Origin: Longimicrobiales bacterium
GTDB lineage: Bacteria; Gemmatimonadota; Gemmatimonadetes; Longimicrobiales; Gaopeijiaceae
DNA length: 64,000 nt
Reading direction: 5' to 3'
Assembly: GCA_965204735.1 (NCBI GenBank)
Contig: OZ242008.1
Coordinates: 1,824,001-1,888,000 of the forward strand
Shown one piece after another: positions 41,194 to 62,802 of the stretch (its first letter is position 1; each line of letters starts with the position of its first letter). A program made the position numbers and the translations under genes. The notes beneath the pieces were generated by a model. It was not told the DNA's origin. It saw only the letters and a program-made list of their open reading frames with translations, and did no database searches.

Positions 41194-42655
41194 GCCGAGC
41201 CGGATCGACCCAGCCGCAGTCCCCGGCGGAATCTTTCGCCAGTACGACATTCGCGGGATCGTGGGCGAGAGCTTGGACCCGGCGATCGCAGAGGCGGTGG
41301 GCGCGGCCTACGGCGCCGAGCTCCGGGACCGCTTGGGAGGCGCCGTCCCCAAGGTGGTGGCGGGTCAGGACAACCGACCTTCGTCGCCCTCCCTGGCGGA
41401 CGGGCTGACGCGGGGCGTCCACGCCGCCGGCTGCGACGTGGTGCGGCTGGGAACGGTGCCCACCCCGGTCGCCTACTTCGCCGAGCACGAACTGGCGGCC
41501 CACGGGTCGCTGCAGGTCACCGGGTCCCACAACCCGTCCGAGTACAACGGCGTCAAGATGACGGTGGCGAAGGCGTCGCTTCACGGCGACGCGATCCAGG
41601 CGCTCTTGGCGCGGATCCGCTCGGGACGCATGAGGCCGGCGCAGGGACCGGCGGCGGACGTGGCCGGCCCGACCTCGCCCGGCGAGTCGGCGGCGGCGGA
41701 CGGGCGCTCGGCCTCCGGCGCCGTGGAAGAGGTGGACGTGCTGCCCGCCTATGTCGCCGCGGTCGCGGGACGCTTCCGTCCCGCCAGGCCGGTCAAGGTC
41801 GTGGTGGATTGCGGGAACGGGACCGGCGCGGTGGTGGCTGTCGAGCTCCTGGAGGCGGCGGGCGCCCAGGTGGTTCCCCTCTACTGCGACTCCGACGGCA
41901 CGTTCCCGAACCACCACCCGGACCCCACGGTGGACGACAACGTCCGCGAGCTGGCGGCCCAGGTTCGCCGCCACGGCGCCGAGGCGGGGATCGGCTTCGA
42001 CGGAGACGCGGACCGGATCGGCGTGGTGGACGGAGAGGGCCGGATCGTCCGGGCCGACGTCCTGCTGCTGCTCTTCGGCCTGGACATGCTCCGCCGGGTC
42101 GGCCCCGGCGTCCAGCTGGTGTTCGACGTGAAGTGCTCCCAGGCGCTGCCGGAGGTGTTCGAGCGGGCGGGCGGCGTGCCCGTGATGTGGAAGACGGGCC
42201 ACTCGCTCGTCAAGGAGAAGATGAGGGAGACCGGGGCTCCGATCGCCGGCGAGCTCTCGGGCCACATCTGCTTCGCCGACGACTACTACGGCTTCGACGA
42301 CGCGCTCTACGCCGCCTGCCGCTTGGTGGAGATGATCGCCGGGTCCGAGCGTTCGTTGGCCGAGATGGTGCGGGAGCTGCCGTCGTACGCCTCCACTCCC
42401 GAGATGCGGATCGACGTGCCGGAGTCCGAGAAGTTCGGCTTGGTGGCCGACGCCAGGGAGTACTTCGCCCGCGACCACGAGGTGATCGCGCTGGACGGCG
42501 CCCGGGTGCTGTTCGGGGACGGCTGGGGGCTGATCCGGGCCTCCAACACCCAACCGGCGATCACGGTGCGCTGCGAAGCCGCCACCGAGGCGCGCCTGGG
42601 GGAGATCCGCGAGACGCTGGAACGCTGGCTTCGGGCCCGAGGCGTCCGCCTGTGA
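41180..42655 (+). CDS. Phosphomannomutase/phosphoglucomutase (AlgC-like)
   Basis: IFRQYDIRG, TGSHNP, FPNHHPDP, FDGDADR, GELSGH, RASNT. Confidence 0.95.
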   Translation: MPGTEPSRIDPAAVPGGIFRQYDIRGIVGESLDPAIAEAVGAAYGAELRDRLGGAVPKVVAGQDNRPSSPSLADGLTRGVHAAGCDVVRLGTVPTPVAYFAEHELAAHGSLQVTGSHNPSEYNGVKMTVAKASLHGDAIQALLARIRSGRMRPAQGPAADVAGPTSPGESAAADGRSASGAVEEVDVLPAYVAAVAGRFRPARPVKVVVDCGNGTGAVVAVELLEAAGAQVVPLYCDSDGTFPNHHPDPTVDDNVRELAAQVRRHGAEAGIGFDGDADRIGVVDGEGRIVRADVLLLLFGLDMLRRVGPGVQLVFDVKCSQALPEVFERAGGVPVMWKTGHSLVKEKMRETGAPIAGELSGHICFADDYYGFDDALYAACRLVEMIAGSERSLAEMVRELPSYASTPEMRIDVPESEKFGLVADAREYFARDHEVIALDGARVLFGDGWGLIRASNTQPAITVRCEAATEARLGEIRETLERWLRARGVRL

Positions 42656-43908
42656 GGCGCCCGGACTCCAAGCGTGGAGCCGGGGACCGCCTCGGCACGA
42701 CCGTAACCTTGGCCATACTGGTAAGTACTGTCGGCGCTGCTGTCGGGCCTCCTGGCGAGGAGCCGCCAAGTCACGCGATCCTCCACTTCGATCACGGACG
42801 ACACGCCGATCAAGCAGCTGGGTGAAGTGTTGTTTCACTCGGACAGCGTCGATTCATCGACATCGACGAAACTCGGCAAGTTGGGAGGAGGCTTGTTTCT
42901 CAACTCGAATCTGTTCGTATACGCCGACGCCCTTGCGAGGACGCTCAACTTTGTACACGTGGATCGGCGAGAGATCGTCACGGTCGGCGGCCATGGCCAG
43001 GGGCCCGGAGAGTTTCAGGTGGTTGGTGGGGTTTTTCGAGACGGCCGGGGCAATGTGATAGTTGACGACTGGGCAGCACTGCGTGCAACAGTACTTGATC
43101 CGGACGGAAATGCGATCCGAACCATAGCTTACGACGTGTCGCCGCTCACCGGCGGTCCGGGCGTGCCCAGGGTCGTCGGGCTGACGACGACCGGCACACT
43201 GATTGTACGCGATTCCGATCCATGGGTCGTTCCGCGGCCAGATGGCTTGTATCGACCGAATGTTTGGCTCGTCACTCTCGACGTCGCCTCCCGGTCATCC
43301 CTAACAATTGCGCACGGCCAGGGTCGAGAGAGCGTGCGAATGAACCACAGTGCAGATGACGCGCACAGCTTTTCCTTCAGTACCGTGGACGTCCCGTTTG
43401 CTCATGATCTGTTCAGCGTTTTCATGACGATAAGCTGTACGTAGCCGATACGAGCAAAGACAGTGCAGTCGTCGTGAATACGGCGGGAACCGTAGTTCGA
43501 CGAATTCCCCTTCCTCCCGCAAGAATCGCATCTGAAGAGGACCTTGCATCTTGGAAAGAACAGCAGACCACAAGACTGCGGGAGCGCAACAGATCTCCGA
43601 GTTCTTTTGATGCCAGCGACCACATCAGATGGACGAGGGAAGCCACTGGCAACACCGTTGCCCCGCGAATCAGCGGCATGTTCGTGGACGTCGCAGGACG
43701 GCTGTGGATGCAGCGATACGCGATGCCAACCGATACGGCGGCTTACTGGGAGCTGTGGGACCTGAATGATCAAGTTCTATCCGCTGTGGTGAGCGTGTCC
43801 CCAGGAGACCAGCTGTTGGATGCGGCGGGCGACGTTGTCTTGACCAGCAGCACGACCGAGTTGGGGTTGACCAGCATCACAGTATGGCGGCTTGCTGGCG
43901 AGTCGTGA
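42652..43908 (+). pseudogene. 6-bladed beta-propeller-type exported protein interrupted by two frameshifts (pseudogene or assembly error)
   Basis: GTG 42652 gives a signal-like MRRPDSK..TVTLAILVSTVGAAVG; a shift near 42745 leads into the frame with GGHGQGPGEF; a shift back near 43420 gives FHDDKLYVADT...FVDVAGRLW, homologous to the next gene. Confidence 0.7.
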
Positions 43909-45167
43909 ACCACCACCGGCTCGTTCGCGTACTTGCTCTGGTCGGCGCCGTAGTCGGAGTGTCGGGGCGGGCAGGGGACCAGAGGATTGTTGAACGGCGC
44001 CTGTCCTCGCCGCCGCTCTTTGACTCGCACCTCGTCACGGATCCTGGAATGTCGGCGATTGATGCGACATCTGCGCTCTTTACAGGGAAGAATCGATTTG
44101 CAGCAGCCGGTCCGGAGCATGCGGACGCCACGCTTGTCTTTGTCGACGTGGTCGATGGATCAGTGGCGACGGTTACTGCAGAGGCGCTGGGACTTTCGGG
44201 GATCGGGGGCATGACGCTGGTGCGGGCAGGCGCCGATGGCCGAGTGGTCGCTTGGCACGGCGAGTCCTCTCAGGTCGTCACCATCTCGACAACGGGGACG
44301 GCAGTTGAGCGCATACCCCTTGGGTTGCCCGCCGGCTTTATGACGGCGCCGTGGGAACTTGCTGCACTTGGCGTCGAAGATGGGGTGGCCGTGTTGAGGC
44401 AACGGGCCATTGGGGCCGGCTTCGGCAACGTGGGCGGCATGTCGTATCGTCAACGGCTAGAGTTTTCGCTGATTCGGCCCGGTGGAGACCCGGAACCCGT
44501 CGTGCAGGTTGGGGGAGCAGAACGTGTCTATCTTGCTGTTCGCGAGGACTCCGCTCGGGGCAATGTCGAGACGGATGTGATTTTCGGTGAAACGGTTTTC
44601 AGCGCTCCACTCGGCGCCGACAAGGTGATTGTTGCGGAAACCGACGCAGATTCGATCTGGGTGCTGGACACGCAGGGCAACTACAGGCCGCTGTTGCCGA
44701 CGCCACTGCGATCGGTTGTCGTGACTGAGGATGACGTTCGAATTGAGCGGAGTCGGCTGAGGCGGCGCAATCTGATGGACCAGGAGATGGACGGTTTGAT
44801 GGACATGGTATCCGGTCGGCATCGAGAGCAACTCATGGCTCTTGATCGTGCCAGTCGCATGGCGATCGACTTGGCGCCGGTGAGTTGGACGCCGCCGGCG
44901 ATCGCAGATCTGGTGGTGGACGGGCAGTCGAGAGTGTGGCTGAAGCGGTTCGTGCCGCCGACGGATTCGGTTGCCACTTGGGAAGTATGGAACACGGAGA
45001 GACGGGTTGTTGAGTTTCGCCTGGACGCACCGCAAGAGTGGGACGTCTTGGATGCTCGCGGTGACCAGGTGCTGCTTCGCGCGGAGGGGAGTTGGGAGGC
45101 CGGGGCAGATCGTCTTGGCCGGCTGCTGGTTATGGAAATGCAGCCGGCGTCGCGGCACGACGACTGA
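43905..45167 (+). CDS. Exported beta-propeller-type protein, paralog of the upstream gene
   Basis: Hydrophobic N-terminus; C-terminal PAIADLVVDGQSRVWLKR..PTD..TWEVWN..VLDARGDQVL matches PRISGMFVDVAGRLWMQR..PTD..YWELWD..LLDAAGDVVL. Confidence 0.72.
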   Translation: MNHHRLVRVLALVGAVVGVSGRAGDQRIVERRLSSPPLFDSHLVTDPGMSAIDATSALFTGKNRFAAAGPEHADATLVFVDVVDGSVATVTAEALGLSGIGGMTLVRAGADGRVVAWHGESSQVVTISTTGTAVERIPLGLPAGFMTAPWELAALGVEDGVAVLRQRAIGAGFGNVGGMSYRQRLEFSLIRPGGDPEPVVQVGGAERVYLAVREDSARGNVETDVIFGETVFSAPLGADKVIVAETDADSIWVLDTQGNYRPLLPTPLRSVVVTEDDVRIERSRLRRRNLMDQEMDGLMDMVSGRHREQLMALDRASRMAIDLAPVSWTPPAIADLVVDGQSRVWLKRFVPPTDSVATWEVWNTERRVVEFRLDAPQEWDVLDARGDQVLLRAEGSWEAGADRLGRLLVMEMQPASRHDD

Positions 45168-45357
45168 CGCACTTGTCCGGGAGCGCCTTGGATTGGTGGG
45201 CTGCCCGACGGTGCACGATGGCGGACGCCCGGGCTGCGAGGTGGACGCTCGCTGGCCGGGTCGACGCCGACCGGTACGGTGATACCGTGGTACCACGACG
45301 CGGGAGGCGCGGCGGCGAGCCGCCGGACCGACGGCCAACCTTCGGCAAGCGTCGGGC

Positions 45358-45414
45358 CGAAAAAAAAAATAGTCCCATCCAGCTATCCAAACGCCCATTT
45401 CCGGTCGCCATCAT
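45358..45414 (+). promoter_or_regulatory. Conserved non-coding motif, copy 1 (A-tract + ATCCA direct repeat + -10-like hexamer)
   Basis: cgA10tagtcccATCCAgctATCCAaacg-N15-catcat; near-identical copy at 62750-62802. Confidence 0.55.
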
Positions 45415-45507
45415 TAAGCCGTCGGTGGAAAGAACCGCCGTGATCGGGGGTTCCGCCAGCCCGCAGGGCGGGCAGCACGGCTGTCTCCCGACACCCGGAC
45501 CCAAGCG

Positions 45508-46227
45508 ATGGAGGCGAAGATGGCGAAGACGCGAACCGAACGGAGCCGTTGGCGCGCCCGCGTGGCGCGCGGTTCGACGGCAACTGGTTCCTCACACGGA
45601 GATTCGTCGCCGGCCGAAGCGCTGCGCGGTCGCTCGCCGGGGACGTTGGCGGCGATCGGCGGCCAGGGGACGGTTGCGGTTCTGGCGGGCGTGGCCTTTG
45701 CCGCCTGTGCCGGAGGCGGGCCGAACAGATCGGCGCCCCTGGACGTGGGCGACCCGGCGCCGCCGTCGCTGCAGCTGTCCGGGAGCGGACCGGCTCTGGT
45801 CTGGGCGTTCAACTCGGTGGATTGCCTGACCTGCAAGCTGGCGGAGTCGTCGTGGGTTGTCCGGCGGCTTCAACGCCGCTTCCGCGGCCTGAAGACGGTG
45901 GTGGCGGCGGTCGGACCGGGCAGTGCGTCCGATCGGGAGATGGTCGCAGGGTTCCTCGCCTCGGAGCGAATCCAAGCCACGATCCTGATGCAGACGCGGA
46001 AGGCGCACGCCGGGGAGTTCGGCGGAGGCGCGCCGCTTCCTGCGCTGTACCTGGTGGGGCGGTCGGGAACCACCGTGACGGCTGCCGTGCCCGACCCCGC
46101 TGCCCCCGGCGTTCCCGATTGGGACCGCTTCGACCTGGACGCAGTCCTGCACCGCCTCGCCCAGTCGGTCGACGCGGACGAAGAGCCGAACAGCACACAC
46201 ACAACTCGCAAGGAGAACAACCAATGA
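45508..46227 (+). CDS. Thioredoxin-fold (CxxC) putative lipoprotein; start uncertain
   Basis: AFAAC lipobox-like site, LVWAFNSVDCLTC, downstream PLPALYLVGRSG (cis-Pro-loop-like); stop overlaps peptide 1 ATG. Confidence 0.68.
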   Translation: MEAKMAKTRTERSRWRARVARGSTATGSSHGDSSPAEALRGRSPGTLAAIGGQGTVAVLAGVAFAACAGGGPNRSAPLDVGDPAPPSLQLSGSGPALVWAFNSVDCLTCKLAESSWVVRRLQRRFRGLKTVVAAVGPGSASDREMVAGFLASERIQATILMQTRKAHAGEFGGGAPLPALYLVGRSGTTVTAAVPDPAAPGVPDWDRFDLDAVLHRLAQSVDADEEPNSTHTTRKENNQ

Positions 46228-46499
46228 CGAACCGAACGGAGAAGCGTGCAAAGAGAAGCCGGGCGAAGACCCTGGTGGCCGCGACGGGCTTGGCCCTGGC
46301 CGTGATTTCCGCAAGCCCGGCCGCCGGGTTCGGACCCGCGCTCGACGGGCGGGCGGAGGCTCAGTACCACGTCAAGATGAAGCTGGTGTACGGACCCTTC
46401 CAGCTCTGCGTGTGGTCGTGCTACCTGGGCCGCTGCTGCGCCTACGACAAGCCCACCTTCCCATACTGGGAGTCGGAGTTCGACGCCATGACTCGTTAG
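46224..46499 (+). CDS. Small secreted Cys-rich peptide precursor 1 (91 aa)
   Basis: AAGGAG RBS; MTNRTEKRAKRSRAKTLVAATGLALAVISASPAAGFGPALDGRAEA|QYHVKMKLVYGPFQLCVWSCYLGRCC... Confidence 0.85.
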   Translation: MTNRTEKRAKRSRAKTLVAATGLALAVISASPAAGFGPALDGRAEAQYHVKMKLVYGPFQLCVWSCYLGRCCAYDKPTFPYWESEFDAMTR

Positions 46500-46605
46500 G
46501 CTGGAGTCCCTCGCCCCATCCCTCGGGCCGGAGCCGCCGGACGCATATAGATAGGCGCCGGCGGTCTGTTGCCCGTCCCCGACAGAAGCGAAGAAGGAGT
46601 CGCCG

Positions 46606-47766
46606 GTGAAGACCAACGCACCCGCAGGAAGCCGCCAGAAGACGAACGCAACCGACGTTGCCCCTCGGGCGCGTCAGCCATCAATTCCGTCTGGTCGGGT
46701 CTTCCCAGTCCTGGTCGTCGCGCTGACGCTGTCGGCCTGCGACCGGGCCGATCCTCCGTCCCCTCCGGCGACGCCCTCCGCTTCGACCTCCGAGACGCCG
46801 TCGCTCGCCGCGCTGGAGGGGGTCTTCGAGGTCGTCGGCTCTATCGAGCTGGAAGAGACCGACGAAGTGCTGACGGTCCAGCCCATGGTGACCGTCGGCG
46901 GTCCCGGCGAGCTGCTGGTCGCGGAGCCCATGGAGGGACAGGTCCGCGTGTACGGCGTGGACGGGGCGCTCCGGGCGAACCTGGGACGCAGAGGAGCAGG
47001 TCCAGGCGAGTTCGAGTTCCCGATGACGGCGCATCGGACGCTCGACGGCGGGCTGGTGGTCGCCGACGTGGGCATGTCGCGCCTGACCTTCTTGGCATCG
47101 GGCAACCCTGATTCGGTCCAGGTTGCCGATCTGCCCGACGTCGGGCTGCTCGCTGCCCAGGACATGGGCGACGGGCGCTACTTGATCGCCGGTCTCAACC
47201 GCCCGGACGGCCCGGAGGGAAGCTTCCTCCACTTCTGGAACCGAGGAACCCAGGAGTTCGAGCGGAGCTTCCTGCGCATGAGAGTTCCGGAGGAGCTCGA
47301 GGCGCTGGCCATGACGATGTCCGGCGTGGTGGCGGTAACGGAGGCCGATACCATATGGGCGGCCTGGGCCCTTTCGGACACGCTCTACAAGTACGACCTC
47401 GAGGGCAATCGCCTTGCCGCCTACCCGCTTGTCCTGCCCCGTCCGGGAAGCGGACCGCAAGGCGGCGAAGTCATCCGCGATCCCGTGTCCATGCGGGAAG
47501 AGTTCGACGCCACTACGCAGATCATGAACGTGTTCCCGCTGCGCAGCGGGAGGATCGCGGTCCAGGCCATGCAGACCCGTGGCAACGATGCGGTCTTCGA
47601 TCTCTTGATCGTCGACCGGGAAGGGAACGACCTGTGGAAGCAGGCGGGCACTCCCAGGTTGTACGTCGTCGCCGACGACGTGTTCTACTTCCAGGATCCG
47701 TCCTCGGTGCACCCCAACAAGTGGGTCGTGGCCACATTGGCCGAGCTGCCCACCAACGAGGGATAG
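46606..47766 (+). CDS. 6-bladed beta-propeller (NHL-like) lipoprotein
   Basis: AAGGAG RBS, LSAC lipobox, LGRRGAGPGEFEFP motif, repeated beta-strand blades (LLVAE, LVVAD, YLIAG). Confidence 0.82.
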   Translation: MKTNAPAGSRQKTNATDVAPRARQPSIPSGRVFPVLVVALTLSACDRADPPSPPATPSASTSETPSLAALEGVFEVVGSIELEETDEVLTVQPMVTVGGPGELLVAEPMEGQVRVYGVDGALRANLGRRGAGPGEFEFPMTAHRTLDGGLVVADVGMSRLTFLASGNPDSVQVADLPDVGLLAAQDMGDGRYLIAGLNRPDGPEGSFLHFWNRGTQEFERSFLRMRVPEELEALAMTMSGVVAVTEADTIWAAWALSDTLYKYDLEGNRLAAYPLVLPRPGSGPQGGEVIRDPVSMREEFDATTQIMNVFPLRSGRIAVQAMQTRGNDAVFDLLIVDREGNDLWKQAGTPRLYVVADDVFYFQDPSSVHPNKWVVATLAELPTNEG

Positions 47767-47848
47767 CCGTCGAGGGCGTGACGGCGCGGCCGTCCACTTC
47801 GGGGCGGCCGCGCCCGAACGCAGTCAACACACCCCAAGGAGCAAGACC

Positions 47849-48094
47849 ATGAGAGCACCCAAGAGAGAAACCAACAAGAGGAGCCGCGCGAGGACGGCCG
47901 TCAAGGCAGCGGGCTTCGCACTCTTCGCGCTGGCCGGAGCGCCGGCTGCCGGCGACTTTCCGCAGGCGACGCCTGCGGTCGAAGCCGCTGCCCAGCACCG
48001 GGCTGCCAAGAAAGTCGAAGGGTGGTGGATATTCGAGAGGTGCACGGGTGACTGTCCGGGTCACGGCCGGTGCTGCGGCACCTCCGTCGTGTAG
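47849..48094 (+). CDS. Small secreted Cys-rich peptide precursor 2 (81 aa)
   Basis: AAGGAG RBS; MRAPKRETNKRSRARTAVKAAGFALFALAGAPAAGDFPQATPAVEAAA|QHRAAKKVEGWWIFERCTGDCPGHGRCCGTSVV. Confidence 0.87.
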   Translation: MRAPKRETNKRSRARTAVKAAGFALFALAGAPAAGDFPQATPAVEAAAQHRAAKKVEGWWIFERCTGDCPGHGRCCGTSVV

Positions 48095-48149
48095 CCGGGC
48101 GGCCCAAGGCGCAGACCCCAATCAATCAAGACAAGGAGAAGAGAAAGTC

Positions 48150-48395
48150 ATGAAGACAAGACAGAAGACCACTGGCCGGCGTGCTTCGATCGCAAGACTG
48201 GCAAAGGGAGGCGCGTTGGCGGCGGGGCTGCTCGCCGTCGGCCCCTTCACGGCCGAGTTCGCTGACGCTCCGAGCGTCGAGGCAACGGCCCAGCGCGTGT
48301 ACGGCGACAAAGCGGTCCTGGCGTTGTGGTCCATCGAGTGGTGCATGTTCGACTGCCCGGGAGTCGGCGCCTACTGCTGCGGCCCGGTCGCGTAG
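48150..48395 (+). CDS. Small secreted Cys-rich peptide precursor 3 (81 aa)
   Basis: AAGGAG RBS; MKTRQKTTGRRASIARLAKGGALAAGLLAVGPFTAEFADAPSVEATA|QRVYGDKAVLALWSIEWCMFDCPGVGAYCCGPVA. Confidence 0.87.
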   Translation: MKTRQKTTGRRASIARLAKGGALAAGLLAVGPFTAEFADAPSVEATAQRVYGDKAVLALWSIEWCMFDCPGVGAYCCGPVA

Positions 48396-48541: not shown

Positions 48542-49267
48542 TCAGAAGGTTGCCGTGGCGAGCCGGCCCAAGGTCGAAGCCTCGGTGGTTTCCTCGGTCC
48601 AGTAGGGCTCGCCGTATTCGCAGCGGATGAGGGAGCCGTACCAGGCGTGCGCGCTTCGCACTTGGTCGAAGAACGGCCTGCGCCCGCCCGGAAACACCTC
48701 GCCGGCGCCCTTCGCGCGCCTGAACTGCGTGCCATATGCCGCGAGAACCGCGAGCTTTCGCTCCATCTGGCGGCCGATGTCGATCACGAAGGTGGGCTTC
48801 ACCGCATCCTCTCGGAACGCCAGGGCGTGCACCACCTTCTCGGGACGGTGGGCGGATCCGCCGCCGGGGAAGTTGCGCAGGCCCGCCAGGAAGGAGGCGT
48901 CTCGGGCCAAGCGCGCCGCCGCCTCGTGATCGGGATGGCGCCCCTTCGGCCAGTGGGTGACGACGACCCTGGGTCGAAGAGCACGGATTGCCCGGGCCAC
49001 GACGACGCGGGATTCCCGGTCGTCGACCAGCCCCGCGTCCGGCAGTCCGGCGCAGCGACGGTCCGCCAGTCCCAGGAGTTCGGCCGCCGCTGCCGCCTCC
49101 TGCGCCCGGGACTCCCGGCTTCCGCGACTCCCGGCCTCGCCGGCCGTCAGGTCGAGCACGCCCGTGCGCTCCCCGGCGTCCGCCGACTTCAGGAGAGCGC
49201 CGCCGCACAAGAGCTCGGCATCGTCCGGATGGGCCGTCACGGCCAGGACGTCGAGCGGCTCGATCAC
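48542..49267 (-). CDS. bshB1: Bacillithiol biosynthesis deacetylase (PIG-L family)
   Basis: LDVLAVTAHPDDAELLCGG, DLTAGEAGSRG, HPDH, PTFVIDI. Confidence 0.85.
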   Translation of the reverse strand: MIEPLDVLAVTAHPDDAELLCGGALLKSADAGERTGVLDLTAGEAGSRGSRESRAQEAAAAAELLGLADRRCAGLPDAGLVDDRESRVVVARAIRALRPRVVVTHWPKGRHPDHEAAARLARDASFLAGLRNFPGGGSAHRPEKVVHALAFREDAVKPTFVIDIGRQMERKLAVLAAYGTQFRRAKGAGEVFPGGRRPFFDQVRSAHAWYGSLIRCEYGEPYWTEETTEASTLGRLATATF

Positions 49268-49283
49268 GGCGGGACGCTCCGGG

Positions 49284-50567
49284 TCACTCGTAGCGCAGCG
49301 CGTCCACGGGGTCGAGCTTGGAGGCGCGCAGCGCCGGAAGGAGACCGAAGACGATCCCCGTGGCAGCGGCGAGGCCGATTGCGGCCCCGACGGACCAAAG
49401 GGGAATGCGCGCGGGAAGGGGGGTGAGGGCGGCGGCGGCGGACGACGCGCCCCATCCAACGAGCAGCCCGGCAGCGCCGCCCAGTGCGGTGAGGAACGAC
49501 GCTTCCAGGAGAAACTGCCACATGATCTCCCGGCGGGTCGCTCCCAACGCCTTTCGAACGCCGATCTCGCGAGTCCGCTCCGTGACGGAGATGAGCATGA
49601 TGCCGATCACCCCTATCCCGCCCACCAGCATCCCGATCGACGAAAGCCCGAGCATGACCGCGAAGAACATCGTCGTGAGCTGGTTGAAGAGATCCACCAT
49701 CTGCTCGGCCTTGACTGTCGCGAAGTTGTTTTCCTCGCCCGGTCCGAGGCCGCGCATCGAGCGCAGCGTGGAGACGATCTGGTGCTCGGCCTCGATCGCC
49801 GCGCCTTCCCGCGGCACCACCTGCACGCTCATGAACGTCCACCGGTCGCGTGCCTTCAGCCGCTTGTCGGCGGCGGTGTAGGGCACCACCGCGAAGTTCT
49901 CCTGAATCTCGCCGAAGTAGTTGTCGGCCAGGGAGTACACGCCGACCACCGTGAAGAGTTCGTTCGCCGCTCGCCGGCCGGCGTTCACTCGCACCCGCTT
50001 GCCGATCGGGTCGAGGTGTCCGAAGAGCACTTCCGCCAACTTCTCGGAGAGGACGACCACGGCTCGGGCCTGATTGATCTCGGCGACCGTGAAGTCCCGC
50101 CCGCTCACGAAGCCGCCCGGGGTGTACGAGGGCCATCCCGGCGACGCGCCGCGCCAGCTGACGTCGTACAGCCAATCCGACTCGAAGCGGACCGAGGCTC
50201 GGAACTCGTAGCCGGCGATTGCTTCTTCCACCGCAGGAAGGCTCTGAATGCGCCGCACCTCGCGGTTGCTGATGTCGGGCTTGTCGAACCAAGGGGGACG
50301 CCCGGATCCGTCGAAGGCCGCCCGCACGTCCGACATGTCGAAGGGCATCACCATGAAGTTGTCCGGTCCCGCGGAGTCGAACGCCGACATGACCTGGGTG
50401 CGGATCCCCGTCACGACCGCGGCGATCGTCACCACGACCCCCGTGCCGACCCCTACGCCCAGCACCGCCAAGGCGGCCCGCAGCCAGTTGGCCCGCAAGG
50501 CTTCGACCGCCACCCGCGCACCCTCCAGAAAGACCTTCCCCTTGGAACTCACCCTCTGTTCGGTCAC
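49284..50567 (-). CDS. ABC transporter permease (MacB/FtsX family)
   Basis: [38 protein letters not shown]. Confidence 0.93.
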
Positions 50568-50589
50568 GATCGGCTCCTCTTTTCGCTCG

Positions 50590-51831
50590 CTACTCGTACC
50601 GAAGCGCATCGACGGGATCCAGCCTCGCCGCGCGCGCCGCCGGATAGACCCCGGACACCACGCCCACCACCAGCCCCAAGACCACTCCGAGGGCGGCCCA
50701 CTTGGGAGCCACGACGGCGGGAAGCGGCGACACCGCCCCCACCAGCACCGTGGCCGCGGACCCCGTCGCCACGCCGAAGACCGCCCCGATGCCCGACAGC
50801 GTCGCCGTCTCGATCAGCACCTGGACCAAGATGTCGCGGCGCTTGGCGCCGATCGCTTTTCGGATGCCGATCTCCCGAGTCCGCTCCATGACCGTCACCA
50901 GCATGATGTTCATGATCACGATCCCGCCCACCACCAACGAAGTGCCCACTAGGCCGGGCAGGGCGGTGAAGAGGACCGTGCTGATCCGGTTCCAGAACCC
51001 CAGGGTCCCTTCAGTCGTCTCCGCGGCGAAGTCGTTCAGGTCGCCCGGGCGGAGCCGTCGCCGGATCCGCATGATCTCCTCCGCCTCCTGCTGCAGGGGC
51101 AAGACAAGCTCCGGAGTGTTGGCCTTGATCACGATCTGGTCGACGATTCCCCGGGGGTTGGTGAAGCTCTGGACCGGCGACCGAGCGGGCGCCACGGCGA
51201 TGTTGTCGAGGGACTGTCCCAGAAACGAGCCCTGCTCTTCGAGGACGCCGACGACGCGAAAGGGGAACCCGCGAATGCGGACTTCCTTGCCCACCGGGTC
51301 CACTGCTCCGAAGAGGACGTCGGCCGTGGAGCGGCCGAGCACGACGACTGGCCTGCCTTGTTCGTCCTCGGCCTGGCTGAACACCCGTCCCTCCTCGGCG
51401 ACCCAGTTGCGGATGTTGAACATCTCGGCCGTGGCGCCCACGATCCTCACGTTCTCCACCTTGAGGCCGCTCGCCGACTCGAGCTGGCCCCCGCTGGCGG
51501 ACTGGGCGCCGACCACGGCCGGCAGCGCGACCCGCTCCCGGAGATGATCCAGATCGTCGTAGGTCAGCCTGGGCGCCCGAGCCCACGCCCGGCGCTGCTC
51601 GTCCGAGGTGTTCAGGTCGTTTCGCGGCCACCGGAGGACCGTCACCGTGTTGACGCCGATGAAGCTCTCGACGAGAGTCGTCCGCATGTAGCGGTCCACG
51701 CCCTCCACGATGCTCACGACGAGGACGAGGAACATCACGCCCACGATCACGCCCAGCAGGCTGAAGAAGCTCTTGAGCTTCTGGGTGCGGATCTGCTCCG
51801 TGGCCAGCCGGACTCCTTCGAGCGTCTTCAT
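50590..51831 (-). CDS. ABC transporter permease (MacB/FtsX family)
   Basis: [38 protein letters not shown]. Confidence 0.93.
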
Positions 51832-51839
51832 GGCCCGGG

Positions 51840-53150
51840 TCAGTTGCCGCCGTCGGCGCCGTCGCCCTCGTCCTCGTCCGGGTCGGAGGCCCGGATTCGG
51901 TCGCCGTCCTCGAGCGTCCGCACGATCTGATAGGGGCCGCTCACCACCGTGTCTCCCTCGGCCAAGCCGGACAGCACCTCGAAGTACTCCTGACCCGCGA
52001 TGCCGATCTCCACGGCCATGAACGTCGCGCTGCCGTCGCGCACGACGTACGCTCCCTCGACTTCCACGGGCGCGTCCGCCGCCTTGTCGTCGCCGGTCGG
52101 GAAGGCGGCGCCGGAGGTTCCGGACGCGCCCGCGGTCGCCGCCGAGTCCGGGGACAGCTCCCTGACCGTCAGAGCGATGATGGGGATGCTCAGCGCGTCG
52201 TCGCGAGTGGCCGTCACCAAGTCCGCGGTCGCCGACAGGTCGGGGCGAAGCTCGACCCCCGGGTTCCGGAGCGTGACCACCACCTCGAAGTCGATCGTCG
52301 GCGTCTGCCCAGTGCCGGCCGACGCGGAGGGCGACCTGATGGCGCTGTTGCCGATCTCGGTGACCACGCCGGCAAAGTCGCGGTCGGGGAAGGCGTCCAG
52401 CTCCACCGTGGCGCTGTCCCCGAGCTGAATGCCGGGCACGTCGGTCTCGTCGACCTCCAGCACCACCTCCATCACGGACAGGTCCGAGACGGTGAGCACC
52501 AAGCTGCCCGGGTTGTTCATCGTTCCCACGATGACCGTCTCGCCTTCCTCCACGTTCAGGCGCGTGACCCGGCCGGCCATCGGCGCCCGGATGATCGTCT
52601 TGGAGACGTTGTCGCGGGATTCCTCCACCGCCGCCTGGGACTGGCTCACCCCGTACTCGGCCGACTCCAGAAGCGACCGCTGAACTTCTTCCTGGGTCTG
52701 GGCGTTCTCCACGTCCTGCAAGCTGACGAGCAGCGAGTCCCGCGCCCGAAGGTCTGCCAGCCGCTGCGCGTCCCGCTGCGCCTGAAGGTAGTTGGCCCGA
52801 GCCTGCGCCACTTGGGCCTGGGCCTGAAGCAGCGCGGCTTGGCTTCGGCTCAGGCTCGCCTGGAAGCGCGTGGGGTCGAGGCGGAGAAGCACCTGCCCTT
52901 CGGTCACCTCCTCGCCTTCCTCCACCAGCATCTCCGTGACCCGCGCCGAAATGTCGGAGCTGATGTCCACCTTGCGCCGCGCCCGCACGTTGCCGCTGGC
53001 CGTCACCGTCTCGACCAGGTTTCTCCTCTCGATTCCTTCGATCCGGGCGCTGGTCCCCGTCGCTCGGGAGCCGTTGGAGCCGAGGACCGCCGCAGTTGCA
53101 AAGAGGGCGACGACGCCGGTTCCGACGATGACCTTGGTTCTGGTTCGCAT
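51840..53150 (-). CDS. Efflux periplasmic adaptor (HlyD/MacA family)
   Basis: TASGNV, VEEGEEV..GQVLLRLD, coiled coil, IRAPMAG, VDETD, LRPDLSA. Confidence 0.93.
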   Translation of the reverse strand: MRTRTKVIVGTGVVALFATAAVLGSNGSRATGTSARIEGIERRNLVETVTASGNVRARRKVDISSDISARVTEMLVEEGEEVTEGQVLLRLDPTRFQASLSRSQAALLQAQAQVAQARANYLQAQRDAQRLADLRARDSLLVSLQDVENAQTQEEVQRSLLESAEYGVSQSQAAVEESRDNVSKTIIRAPMAGRVTRLNVEEGETVIVGTMNNPGSLVLTVSDLSVMEVVLEVDETDVPGIQLGDSATVELDAFPDRDFAGVVTEIGNSAIRSPSASAGTGQTPTIDFEVVVTLRNPGVELRPDLSATADLVTATRDDALSIPIIALTVRELSPDSAATAGASGTSGAAFPTGDDKAADAPVEVEGAYVVRDGSATFMAVEIGIAGQEYFEVLSGLAEGDTVVSGPYQIVRTLEDGDRIRASDPDEDEGDGADGGN

Positions 53151-62749: not shown

Positions 62750-62802
62750 CGAAAAAATTGGCCGATCCAGCCATCCAAACGTCCCGCTCAAGTTGGTATG
62801 CT
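62750..62802 (+). promoter_or_regulatory. Conserved non-coding motif, copy 2, with extended -10 upstream of comM
   Basis: cgA6ttggccgATCCAgccATCCAaacg-N15-tatgct (TGgTATGCT). Confidence 0.55.

Follow-up and report, generated by a model that had tools for sequence, protein, structure and literature searches.

A conserved unit of a redoxin, a propeller lipoprotein and exported four-cysteine peptides under a putative competence motif in Gemmatimonadota

The locus and its conserved unit

The stretch analysed here (the window) covers 64,000 nucleotides of a Longimicrobiales genome (GenBank assembly GCA_965204735.1, contig OZ242008.1, positions 1,824,001 to 1,888,000 of the forward strand) and contains a co-oriented gene cluster bounded by pgm (PF02878/79/80/00408) on one side and a convergent bshB1 (TIGR04001, 208 bits against a cut-off of 182.5) on the other. 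A preliminary description had taken this whole cluster for one system of secreted C-C-CC peptides, three propeller proteins and a CxxC lipoprotein. Re-reading of all open reading frames (ORFs) reproduced its gene order and strands, the overlapping junctions (GTGA at 42652 and 43905, ATGA at 46224), the C-x3-C-xn-CC pattern of all three precursors and, by a heuristic rather than a signal-peptide predictor, the hydrophobic N-terminal stretches of the six intact products that had been read as export signals. As also described, none of the seven proteins (eight ORF pieces) matches, at cut-off, a family of enzymes that make peptides synthesized on ribosomes and modified after translation (RiPPs). 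The genes are real, but the conserved unit (the module) is smaller than proposed: it spans 45372-48395 and consists of a CLTC redoxin lipoprotein, the third propeller and three exported C-x3-C-xn-CC peptides.

All features of the module lie on the forward strand. It opens with a conserved motif, GTCCCATCCAGCYAT...AAYGCCC (45372..45398), a putative activator site common to competence genes, and with a putative -10 hexamer, CATCAT (45409..45414), which begins 37 nucleotides after the motif start. The CLTC protein, a thioredoxin-fold lipoprotein of the TlpA/ResA/DsbE type with the lipobox FAAC, is encoded at 45508..46227, although its start may be 45520 or later. It is followed by the precursor of peptide 1 (46224..46499, 91 residues, core ...GPFQLCVWSCYLGRCC...), which has orthologues in three congeners, and by propeller 3 (46606..47766), a six-bladed NHL/DUF5128-like lipoprotein with the lipobox LSAC that, by its model and co-folding, is the predicted peptide holder. 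The precursors of peptide 2 (47849..48094) and peptide 3 (48150..48395) have 81 residues each; the former has a predicted cleavage site between AAA and Q, a hairpin VEGWWIF and then C-x3-C-x5-CC, and the latter has C-x3-C-x6-CC.

Profile searches revealed that the three gene families travel together. A profile of three peptides matched strongly in all three congeners among 61 genomes, and one of nine peptides matched in 18 of 401 genomes of the phylum. All 16 peptide-anchored loci have a propeller-3 homologue, and at least 15 have a redoxin within the retrieved stretch; in the 16th (L057) the redoxin was recognized with a later profile. The redoxin-anchored search found 32 of the 401 genomes, or 34 with a wider profile, in six of 12 families. 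Among 20 loci retrieved from the 23 redoxin matches not used in profile building, 18 contain a propeller as well as a C-x3/4-C-xn-CC peptide; the other two, which are the weakest matches, are generic TlpA proteins and have neither. A propeller-anchored search of a named genome collection gave 48 loci, many of which overlap the training loci and are kin and so not independent, with both partners in 41, a peptide in 42 and a lone propeller in six. The linkage of such peptides to propeller and thioredoxin genes elsewhere, on which the preliminary description had staked its proposal, is thus borne out by the redoxin- and propeller-anchored loci alike. All 48 loci are titled Gemmatimonadota (Longimicrobiales, Ca. 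Palauibacter and others); beyond the phylum, the range was gauged by the close propeller pattern alone. Gene order varies among loci, with one to three peptides per propeller. At one pgm-linked site (L156) the whole module has decayed together, and the convergent MacAB-type operon is retained.

Within the genome of the window, 71 six-frame segments of related propellers form 41 clusters. With the propeller-3 profile, propeller 3 itself scores 431 bits and a single lone copy 274, and no other segment exceeds 66. Only this one of the propeller clusters has the redoxin family and three strong peptide matches, which defines the unit as redoxin, propeller 3 and peptides. A lone propeller-3-type gene of 35% identity lies at C1:3352062-3353114, with no redoxin, peptide or motif nearby.

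Propellers 1 (42652..43908) and 2 (43905..45167), both on the forward strand, had been counted in the same system and fall outside the conserved unit. The GC content drops where they lie (0.59-0.64 against 0.67-0.73), and at third codon positions it is 0.67 in propeller 2, compared to 0.77-0.87 in the core genes. Both propellers are missing from the pgm-bshB1 site in three congeners, where pgm, bshB1, the redoxin, the peptide(s) and propeller 3 are retained, the last of these broken in one congener. Moreover, the propeller-3 profile gives them less than 44 bits, outside its 14 best matches, and both are positioned upstream of the module's own conserved motif. On these grounds propellers 1 and 2 do not belong to the unit and, judged from sequence, are a low-GC insertion of another propeller subfamily. 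In congener G003, the closest match to propeller 2 (66%) lies at C1:1.635 Mb, distant from the module of that genome at C1:3.467 Mb. Propeller 2 is an intact generic propeller with a signal-like N-terminus. Propeller 1, a generic six-bladed passenger read in three frames, is frameshifted as described, but by two frameshifts (~42723 and ~43418) and not a single one; its frames are open on both sides of the breaks and total 418 codons. An assembly error was rejected as their cause, since contigs of two other studies are identical letter for letter, at a depth of 2-5 and with the reservation that one run (X1) may be the source sample. Both breaks are absent in a run labelled as sponge metagenome that holds the whole stretch with 117 differences.

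Cysteine-rich small ORFs also adjoin generic propellers elsewhere in this genome (C1:3669686-3669934 and C1:3777697-3778215), with other cysteine patterns and no motif, and similar pairs occur at L050:11370-11573, L099:2335-2571 and L101:9365-9568, which suggests a wider pairing of peptides with propellers. On the other side of the module, bshB1 and a MacAB-type efflux operon (48542-53150 and beyond, reverse strand) run convergent with it and are not part of it.

Peptides, redoxin and the predicted complex

Further analysis of 98 distinct precursors revealed a common organization. The pattern C-x3/4-C-x4-9-CC is matched by all but one (97/98), and in 87 the number of cysteines beyond residue 15 is exactly four. 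The leaders of ~30-50 residues contain a hydrophobic H-region, with an [AVSL]x[AG]Q site in 50 of the 98; GG occurs inside some of them and is not conserved. Positions -8, -6, -3 and -1 before the first cysteine are hydrophobic in 80-87% of 97 peptides and flank a G/W-P turn, a pattern that is the sequence signature of a β-hairpin. Prepilin-type cleavage was considered and dropped, given the lack of Glu+5 and the ordinary signal peptides of distant members.

The ratio of nonsynonymous to synonymous substitution rates (dN/dS) of the peptides is 0.37 (0.30-0.46), and 0.26 in the hairpin, over 21 pairs whose selection at ≥70% identity biases it downward; over 26 pairs chosen by propeller synteny it is 0.44 (0.37-0.53), against 0.245 for the propellers. 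The small ORFs are therefore under purifying selection, as the preliminary description had anticipated, and the peptides are real, constrained genes that evolve faster than the propellers. Even between close genomes a peptide can be replaced, with 27% peptide identity at 91% propeller identity. The description had also presumed a family not yet described, and this too holds in the sources searched. No match at cut-off to Pfam or NCBIfam was found for 52 members, and 68 members gave one chance match (E 0.0077). A sequence search of the PDB returned only signal-peptide-level matches (E ≥ 0.28), and the ESM Atlas gave no usable match for peptide 2. No description of module or motif was found in the literature searched (main texts, mostly from outside subscription journals), nor in the accessible part of PMC11651109.

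The model of the CLTC protein, with a predicted local distance difference test score (pLDDT) of 85, matches ResA, DsbE and SdbA in Foldseek, and its sequence profile matches ResA at E 0.0024; the ESM Atlas placed it in generic redoxin clusters. All 19 close members have both cysteines, and of 30 wider, aligned members, in which the motif is xCL[GTS]C, one has lost the first. As for partners that could recharge the protein, a VKOR and two DsbD-type domains were found in the genome, which is 98% complete, but no DsbB. Proteins of the TlpA/ResA type usually act as reductants. Given this, the fold modelled here and four invariant cysteines, the peptides could be imagined as Cu/Zn-binding chaperones whose CxxxC and CC thiols are kept reduced by the TlpA-like protein. 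We regard this as very improbable: no recurring metalloenzyme or metal transporter adjoins the module in the gene maps, and a DNA-uptake regulon (see below) does not suggest metal handling. A MauB/MauD/MauA-like cofactor system was likewise considered and dropped, with no conserved Trp pair and no peroxidase in the gene maps.

Propeller 3 was modelled as a complete six-bladed propeller with a pLDDT of 88.9. Structural similarity search revealed Bacteroides BVU_1028 as its closest solved fold (Z 21.8, root-mean-square deviation (RMSD) 3.3, 294 aligned residues), followed by NHL domains. Among these, SOQ1 (Z 19.0, RMSD 4.3, 251 aligned) and NHLRC2 (Z 18.7, RMSD 3.4, 246 aligned) have scores tied with those of many other six-bladed propellers, and neither protein is among the 25 sequence-profile matches of the propeller. 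PF17170 (DUF5128) reaches 17.1 bits on propeller 3, below its gathering cut-off of 22.9 and over the N-terminal blades only, and matches weakly in 11 of 19 propeller members (E ≤ 0.01, best E 4.3e-7). In Bacteroidota, small secreted cysteine peptides of the NVEALA family (PF14055) lie beside DUF5128/DUF4221 six-bladed propeller lipoproteins; to our knowledge, these neighbourhoods are uncharacterised. They resemble the module in combining cysteine peptides with six-bladed propellers, BVU_1028 being the closest solved fold. However, the PF14055 profile matches none of 52 module peptides at E values up to 10, and the term NVEALA was not found in the literature searched.

Co-folding of propeller 3 with mature peptide 2 gave a score of 0.83, compared to 0.01 for the best control. 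In a benchmark that is only roughly applicable given our custom alignments, 116 of 157 solved pairs came up to the mark, as did 2 of 215 mismatched ones. Between runs at least 66% of the contacts are the same, and the partner pLDDT is at least 50. The confident contacts comprise peptide residues 56-62 and 64, none of them a cysteine, and the remaining residues are uncertain rather than excluded. These contact residues coincide exactly with the conserved hydrophobic positions of the hairpin. Hence the hairpin probably docks in the pocket of the propeller in the manner modelled, and the earlier claim that a propeller binds a peptide gains support for this pair. The claim that it also processes the peptide does not, because the 19 contact positions on the propeller vary and are for the most part hydrophobic, and none has a polar residue conserved at 85%. 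The predicted pocket is thus, in the model, a binding pocket and not a catalytic site.

An enzyme of the PAL or Ca-lactonase type was rejected on the same pocket conservation. PAL is a six-bladed NHL propeller that also acts on secreted peptides, and propeller 3 matches it with a Z of 19.0 and a sequence-profile E of 1.7e-4. In PAL, metal-binding and catalytic residues are conserved in the central cavity and substrates are Gly-extended. By contrast, the single conserved His of the module propeller lies outside the predicted pocket, and only 5 of 98 peptides end in Gly.

The similarity to NHLRC2 and SOQ1 raises another reading, in which propeller, redoxin and peptide form a resident redox mini-complex, and the propeller-bound peptide relays electrons from the redoxin to envelope targets such as the pilus or DNA uptake. 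As in the module, a Trx-like domain adjoins a six-bladed NHL propeller in both proteins (PMC6107167, seen in part), and in SOQ1 a C-terminal cysteine pair, downstream of the Trx-like domain, receives electrons from it (accessible part of 10.1101/2024.11.01.621559). The location of the peptide cysteines outside the confident interface, the purifying selection and a weaker copy of the upstream motif at dsbA-VKOR (17.0 bits) would also suit such a relay, in addition to the structural matches. Nevertheless, NHLRC2 and SOQ1 are single fused chains with CC(I/V)NC, whose bacterial homologues have no conserved neighbours according to the same part of PMC6107167, whereas in the module the lipoproteins are separate, the motif is CL[GTS]C and peptide genes are conserved alongside. 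Redoxin and propeller are separate genes in all loci mapped, and a search for longer forms found no fusion, which is weak evidence. The absence of both proteins from the sequence-profile matches speaks the same way, and several divergent, replaceable peptides per locus would be unexpected for a fixed subunit. Altogether, we consider a split analogue of SOQ1/NHLRC2 unlikely, if worth keeping in mind.

The upstream motif and natural competence

Alignment of the upstream DNA of 11 module loci revealed the motif GTCCCATCCAGCYAT, which in the window starts at 45372, between propeller 2 and the redoxin gene, and which tracks whichever module gene comes first. The window has three matches against 0.06 expected. 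One of them (62760..62774, forward strand) lies outside the module, 74 nucleotides upstream of comM (PF01078/PF13541/PF13335), and would belong to the same regulon; about 25 further places in the genome carry the motif. A matrix built from the module sites gives 37 genome matches against one in a local shuffle. Exact copies number 24, 20, 19 and 22 in four related genomes, where the reversed pattern gives none, and one exact copy is present in a genome from a genus in which no module was found. Downstream of pgm, every one of the 27 peptide-bearing modules has the motif, at 18.6-37.3 bits. In the -10-like hexamer that follows it, 16 of the 19 distinct sites with top scores have A at offset 38, and 16 have T at offset 42; scans for repeats and for a sigma-70 consensus gave nothing above chance.

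A second matrix, built from 26 sites outside the module in other genomes, was applied to the 2781 called genes of the window's genome and ranked the redoxin gene first of all, at 37.5 bits. Above 25 bits there are 26 genes: the redoxin gene, pilB, a pilin gene that heads a minor-pilin/pilMNOPQ operon, recA, comM, a gene for an extracytoplasmic function (ECF) sigma factor, two unknowns and 18 Rpn/YhgA-like nuclease genes, three of the latter confirmed by PF04754 and the others assigned by likeness. Lower scores were obtained for a C39 peptidase (16.9 bits), comEA (13.0), ssb (11.8) and comEC (8.1), the last three within the top 1.7-2.2% of genes. In other genomes, where 70 of 86 exact sites were examined, the motif precedes ssb (three genomes), comM (two), yraN (two), pilB, comEA, recN, a RecQ-like helicase gene, a C39 peptidase gene, integrase genes and many Rpn and DUF222-HNH genes; about ten of the 70 have no clear downstream gene.

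ComM and YraN are transformation proteins (PMC13663708, in its accessible part). One motif shared by pilus, DNA-receptor and recombination genes, namely the pilin operon, pilB, comM, recA, ssb and comEA, and lacking at lexA (-7.4 bits) and uvrA (-1.6 bits), points to a natural-competence regulon in two Longimicrobiales genera. The regulation alone could instead be that of an SOS or general DNA-damage response, seeing that recA, ssb, recN and a RecQ-like helicase gene carry the motif in some genomes. We judge this improbable, given the scores at lexA and uvrA, a comparison confined to the window's genome, and the motif at the pilin-pilMNOPQ operon, pilB, comEA, comM and yraN in one or more genomes. 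Competence regulons with peptide genes have a precedent: those of pneumococci include ssbB, recA, bacteriocins and fratricins, and CibABC and CbpD, like the module, are secreted peptide products under the regulatory motif of pilin, ssb and recA genes (PMC6560143, seen in part). They differ in having another regulator, neither propeller nor redoxin, and no likeness in sequence, fold or export route.

A top rank in a competence-like regulon would permit positive feedback, so that the peptides could be competence or density pheromones captured by the propeller as a surface receptor, on which lone propellers eavesdrop. That the peptides are small, neutral and lineage-variable fits this reading, as do the six lone propeller-3-type genes among the 48 loci and the one more in the window's genome. 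On the other hand, no recurring kinase, response regulator or transporter adjoins the module in gene maps read by eye, without a family scan of all neighbours, and a propeller that is a lipoprotein has by itself no output to the cytoplasm. A signal and its receptor therefore appear an unlikely explanation.

The motif also precedes a second peptide cluster in the same genome (C1:907780-912570; L237:3781-8570), which encodes an exported stand-alone C39 peptidase, absent at the module locus itself, together with four secreted precursors of the double-glycine type whose hydrophobic cores contain Cys, an AhpC/TSA redoxin, a membrane protein and an ATP-binding cassette (ABC) transporter. Related clusters occur in 11 genomes of a sister genus. 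All 11 C39 loci scored carry the motif (two partial matches of 13 were dropped), and in each, secreted, hydrophobic, Cys-containing precursors of the double-glycine type follow. This looks like an undescribed Sec-exported bacteriocin-like system. In addition, an exact motif without a clear -10 element lies upstream of an ECF sigma/anti-sigma/YbjQ-like operon (C1:3651833-3653220), and a similar operon precedes a lone propeller-3 gene in L147.

Proposed mechanism and significance

We propose, at somewhat less than even confidence, that the module is a competence-coupled station for folding and holding peptides whose products are probably interbacterial effectors. The precursors would leave via Sec and be cut by signal peptidase I, often leaving Gln first, which would yield a mature peptide of 25-45 residues with a hydrophobic β-hairpin followed by a two-disulfide core. 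The hairpin would then, with high probability in the model, dock in the top-face pocket of the lipid-anchored propeller and leave the cysteines outside the confident interface. By fold, linkage and precedent, the adjoining CLxC TlpA-like lipoprotein probably forms or shuffles the peptide disulfides, and might be recharged in trans by VKOR or DsbD. The operon is likely to be switched on with the natural-competence regulon in the two Longimicrobiales genera, co-expression being presumed from the shared motif. More tentatively, the released peptides may act on neighbouring cells as competence-coupled antagonists, and the propeller may serve, with similar reserve, as both a folding platform and a self-protecting sink against them.

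Several observations weigh against this reading. The peptides lack a cationic character, their net charge having a median of 0 and a range of -8 to +4, and no positive selection is seen on them. One propeller is shared by up to three divergent peptides. In contrast to many toxin-immunity islands, the locus is stable in both genera. Neutral charge, lack of positive selection and the shared propeller weigh against a classical toxin-immunity pair, and the strict pairs envisaged in the preliminary description do not agree with one module propeller for one to three divergent peptides. In the redoxin the usual WCxPC is absent and the cis-Pro is not fully conserved, and the pLDDT of the co-folded peptide is only 51-56. 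As for regulation, dprA, yraN and recN of the window's genome have no motif directly upstream and comEC only the weak match. For 12 modules in distant genomes, a search of the upstream DNA did not find the motif (best 7.2 bits); it is also missing at second module copies, and no substitute that the distant modules share with comM, ssb or comEA emerged (one of 31 comparisons at p ~0.03). Thus the competence link may be secondary.

The folding and holding station has a functional parallel in the bacteroidetocins and class IIa-like unmodified disulfide bacteriocins, small exported four-cysteine peptides whose clusters include their own thiol oxidoreductase (PMC6671954, seen in part). A dedicated oxidoreductase is likewise found here, as the CLxC TlpA-fold lipoprotein in 41 of 48 loci. 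Bacteroidetocins, however, have double-glycine leaders of 15-16 residues and a peptidase-domain ABC transporter, and the accessible part of that paper mentions no propeller, whereas the module has long Sec-type leaders, no transporter and a propeller lipoprotein as constant partner. The 15-24-residue double-glycine leader of class II bacteriocins is not seen in its peptides, and no C39-ABC exporter is present at the window locus or in the gene maps of other loci. Altogether, the trio is comparable in its working to clusters for unmodified disulfide bacteriocins and, in the domains it comprises, to NHLRC2/SOQ1, but lacks defining features of both, and also of NVEALA and PAL.

It is possible, and we hold this with some reserve, that these Sec-exported disulfide-hairpin peptides of host-associated Gemmatimonadota are competence-stage effectors, for killing or signalling, folded while clamped on a propeller beside their own redoxin, and that a second bacteriocin-like cluster and some 20 Rpn nucleases are under the control of the same motif. 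The module offers the first candidate ligand class and binding model for the functionally blank six-bladed propeller lipoproteins of Gemmatimonadota. It also supplies some 100 naturally occurring versions of a very small two-disulfide hairpin scaffold, which is independent of any cytoplasmic RiPP enzyme and is therefore likely to be missed by enzyme-centred mining. The shared motif predicts induction of the module together with pilA, comM and ssb. As a putative competence-regulon motif not yet described for Gemmatimonadota, GTCCCATCCAGCYAT outlines such a regulon in a barely cultured phylum, and, being held in common with DNA-uptake genes, it suggests that the peptides may act during gene exchange.

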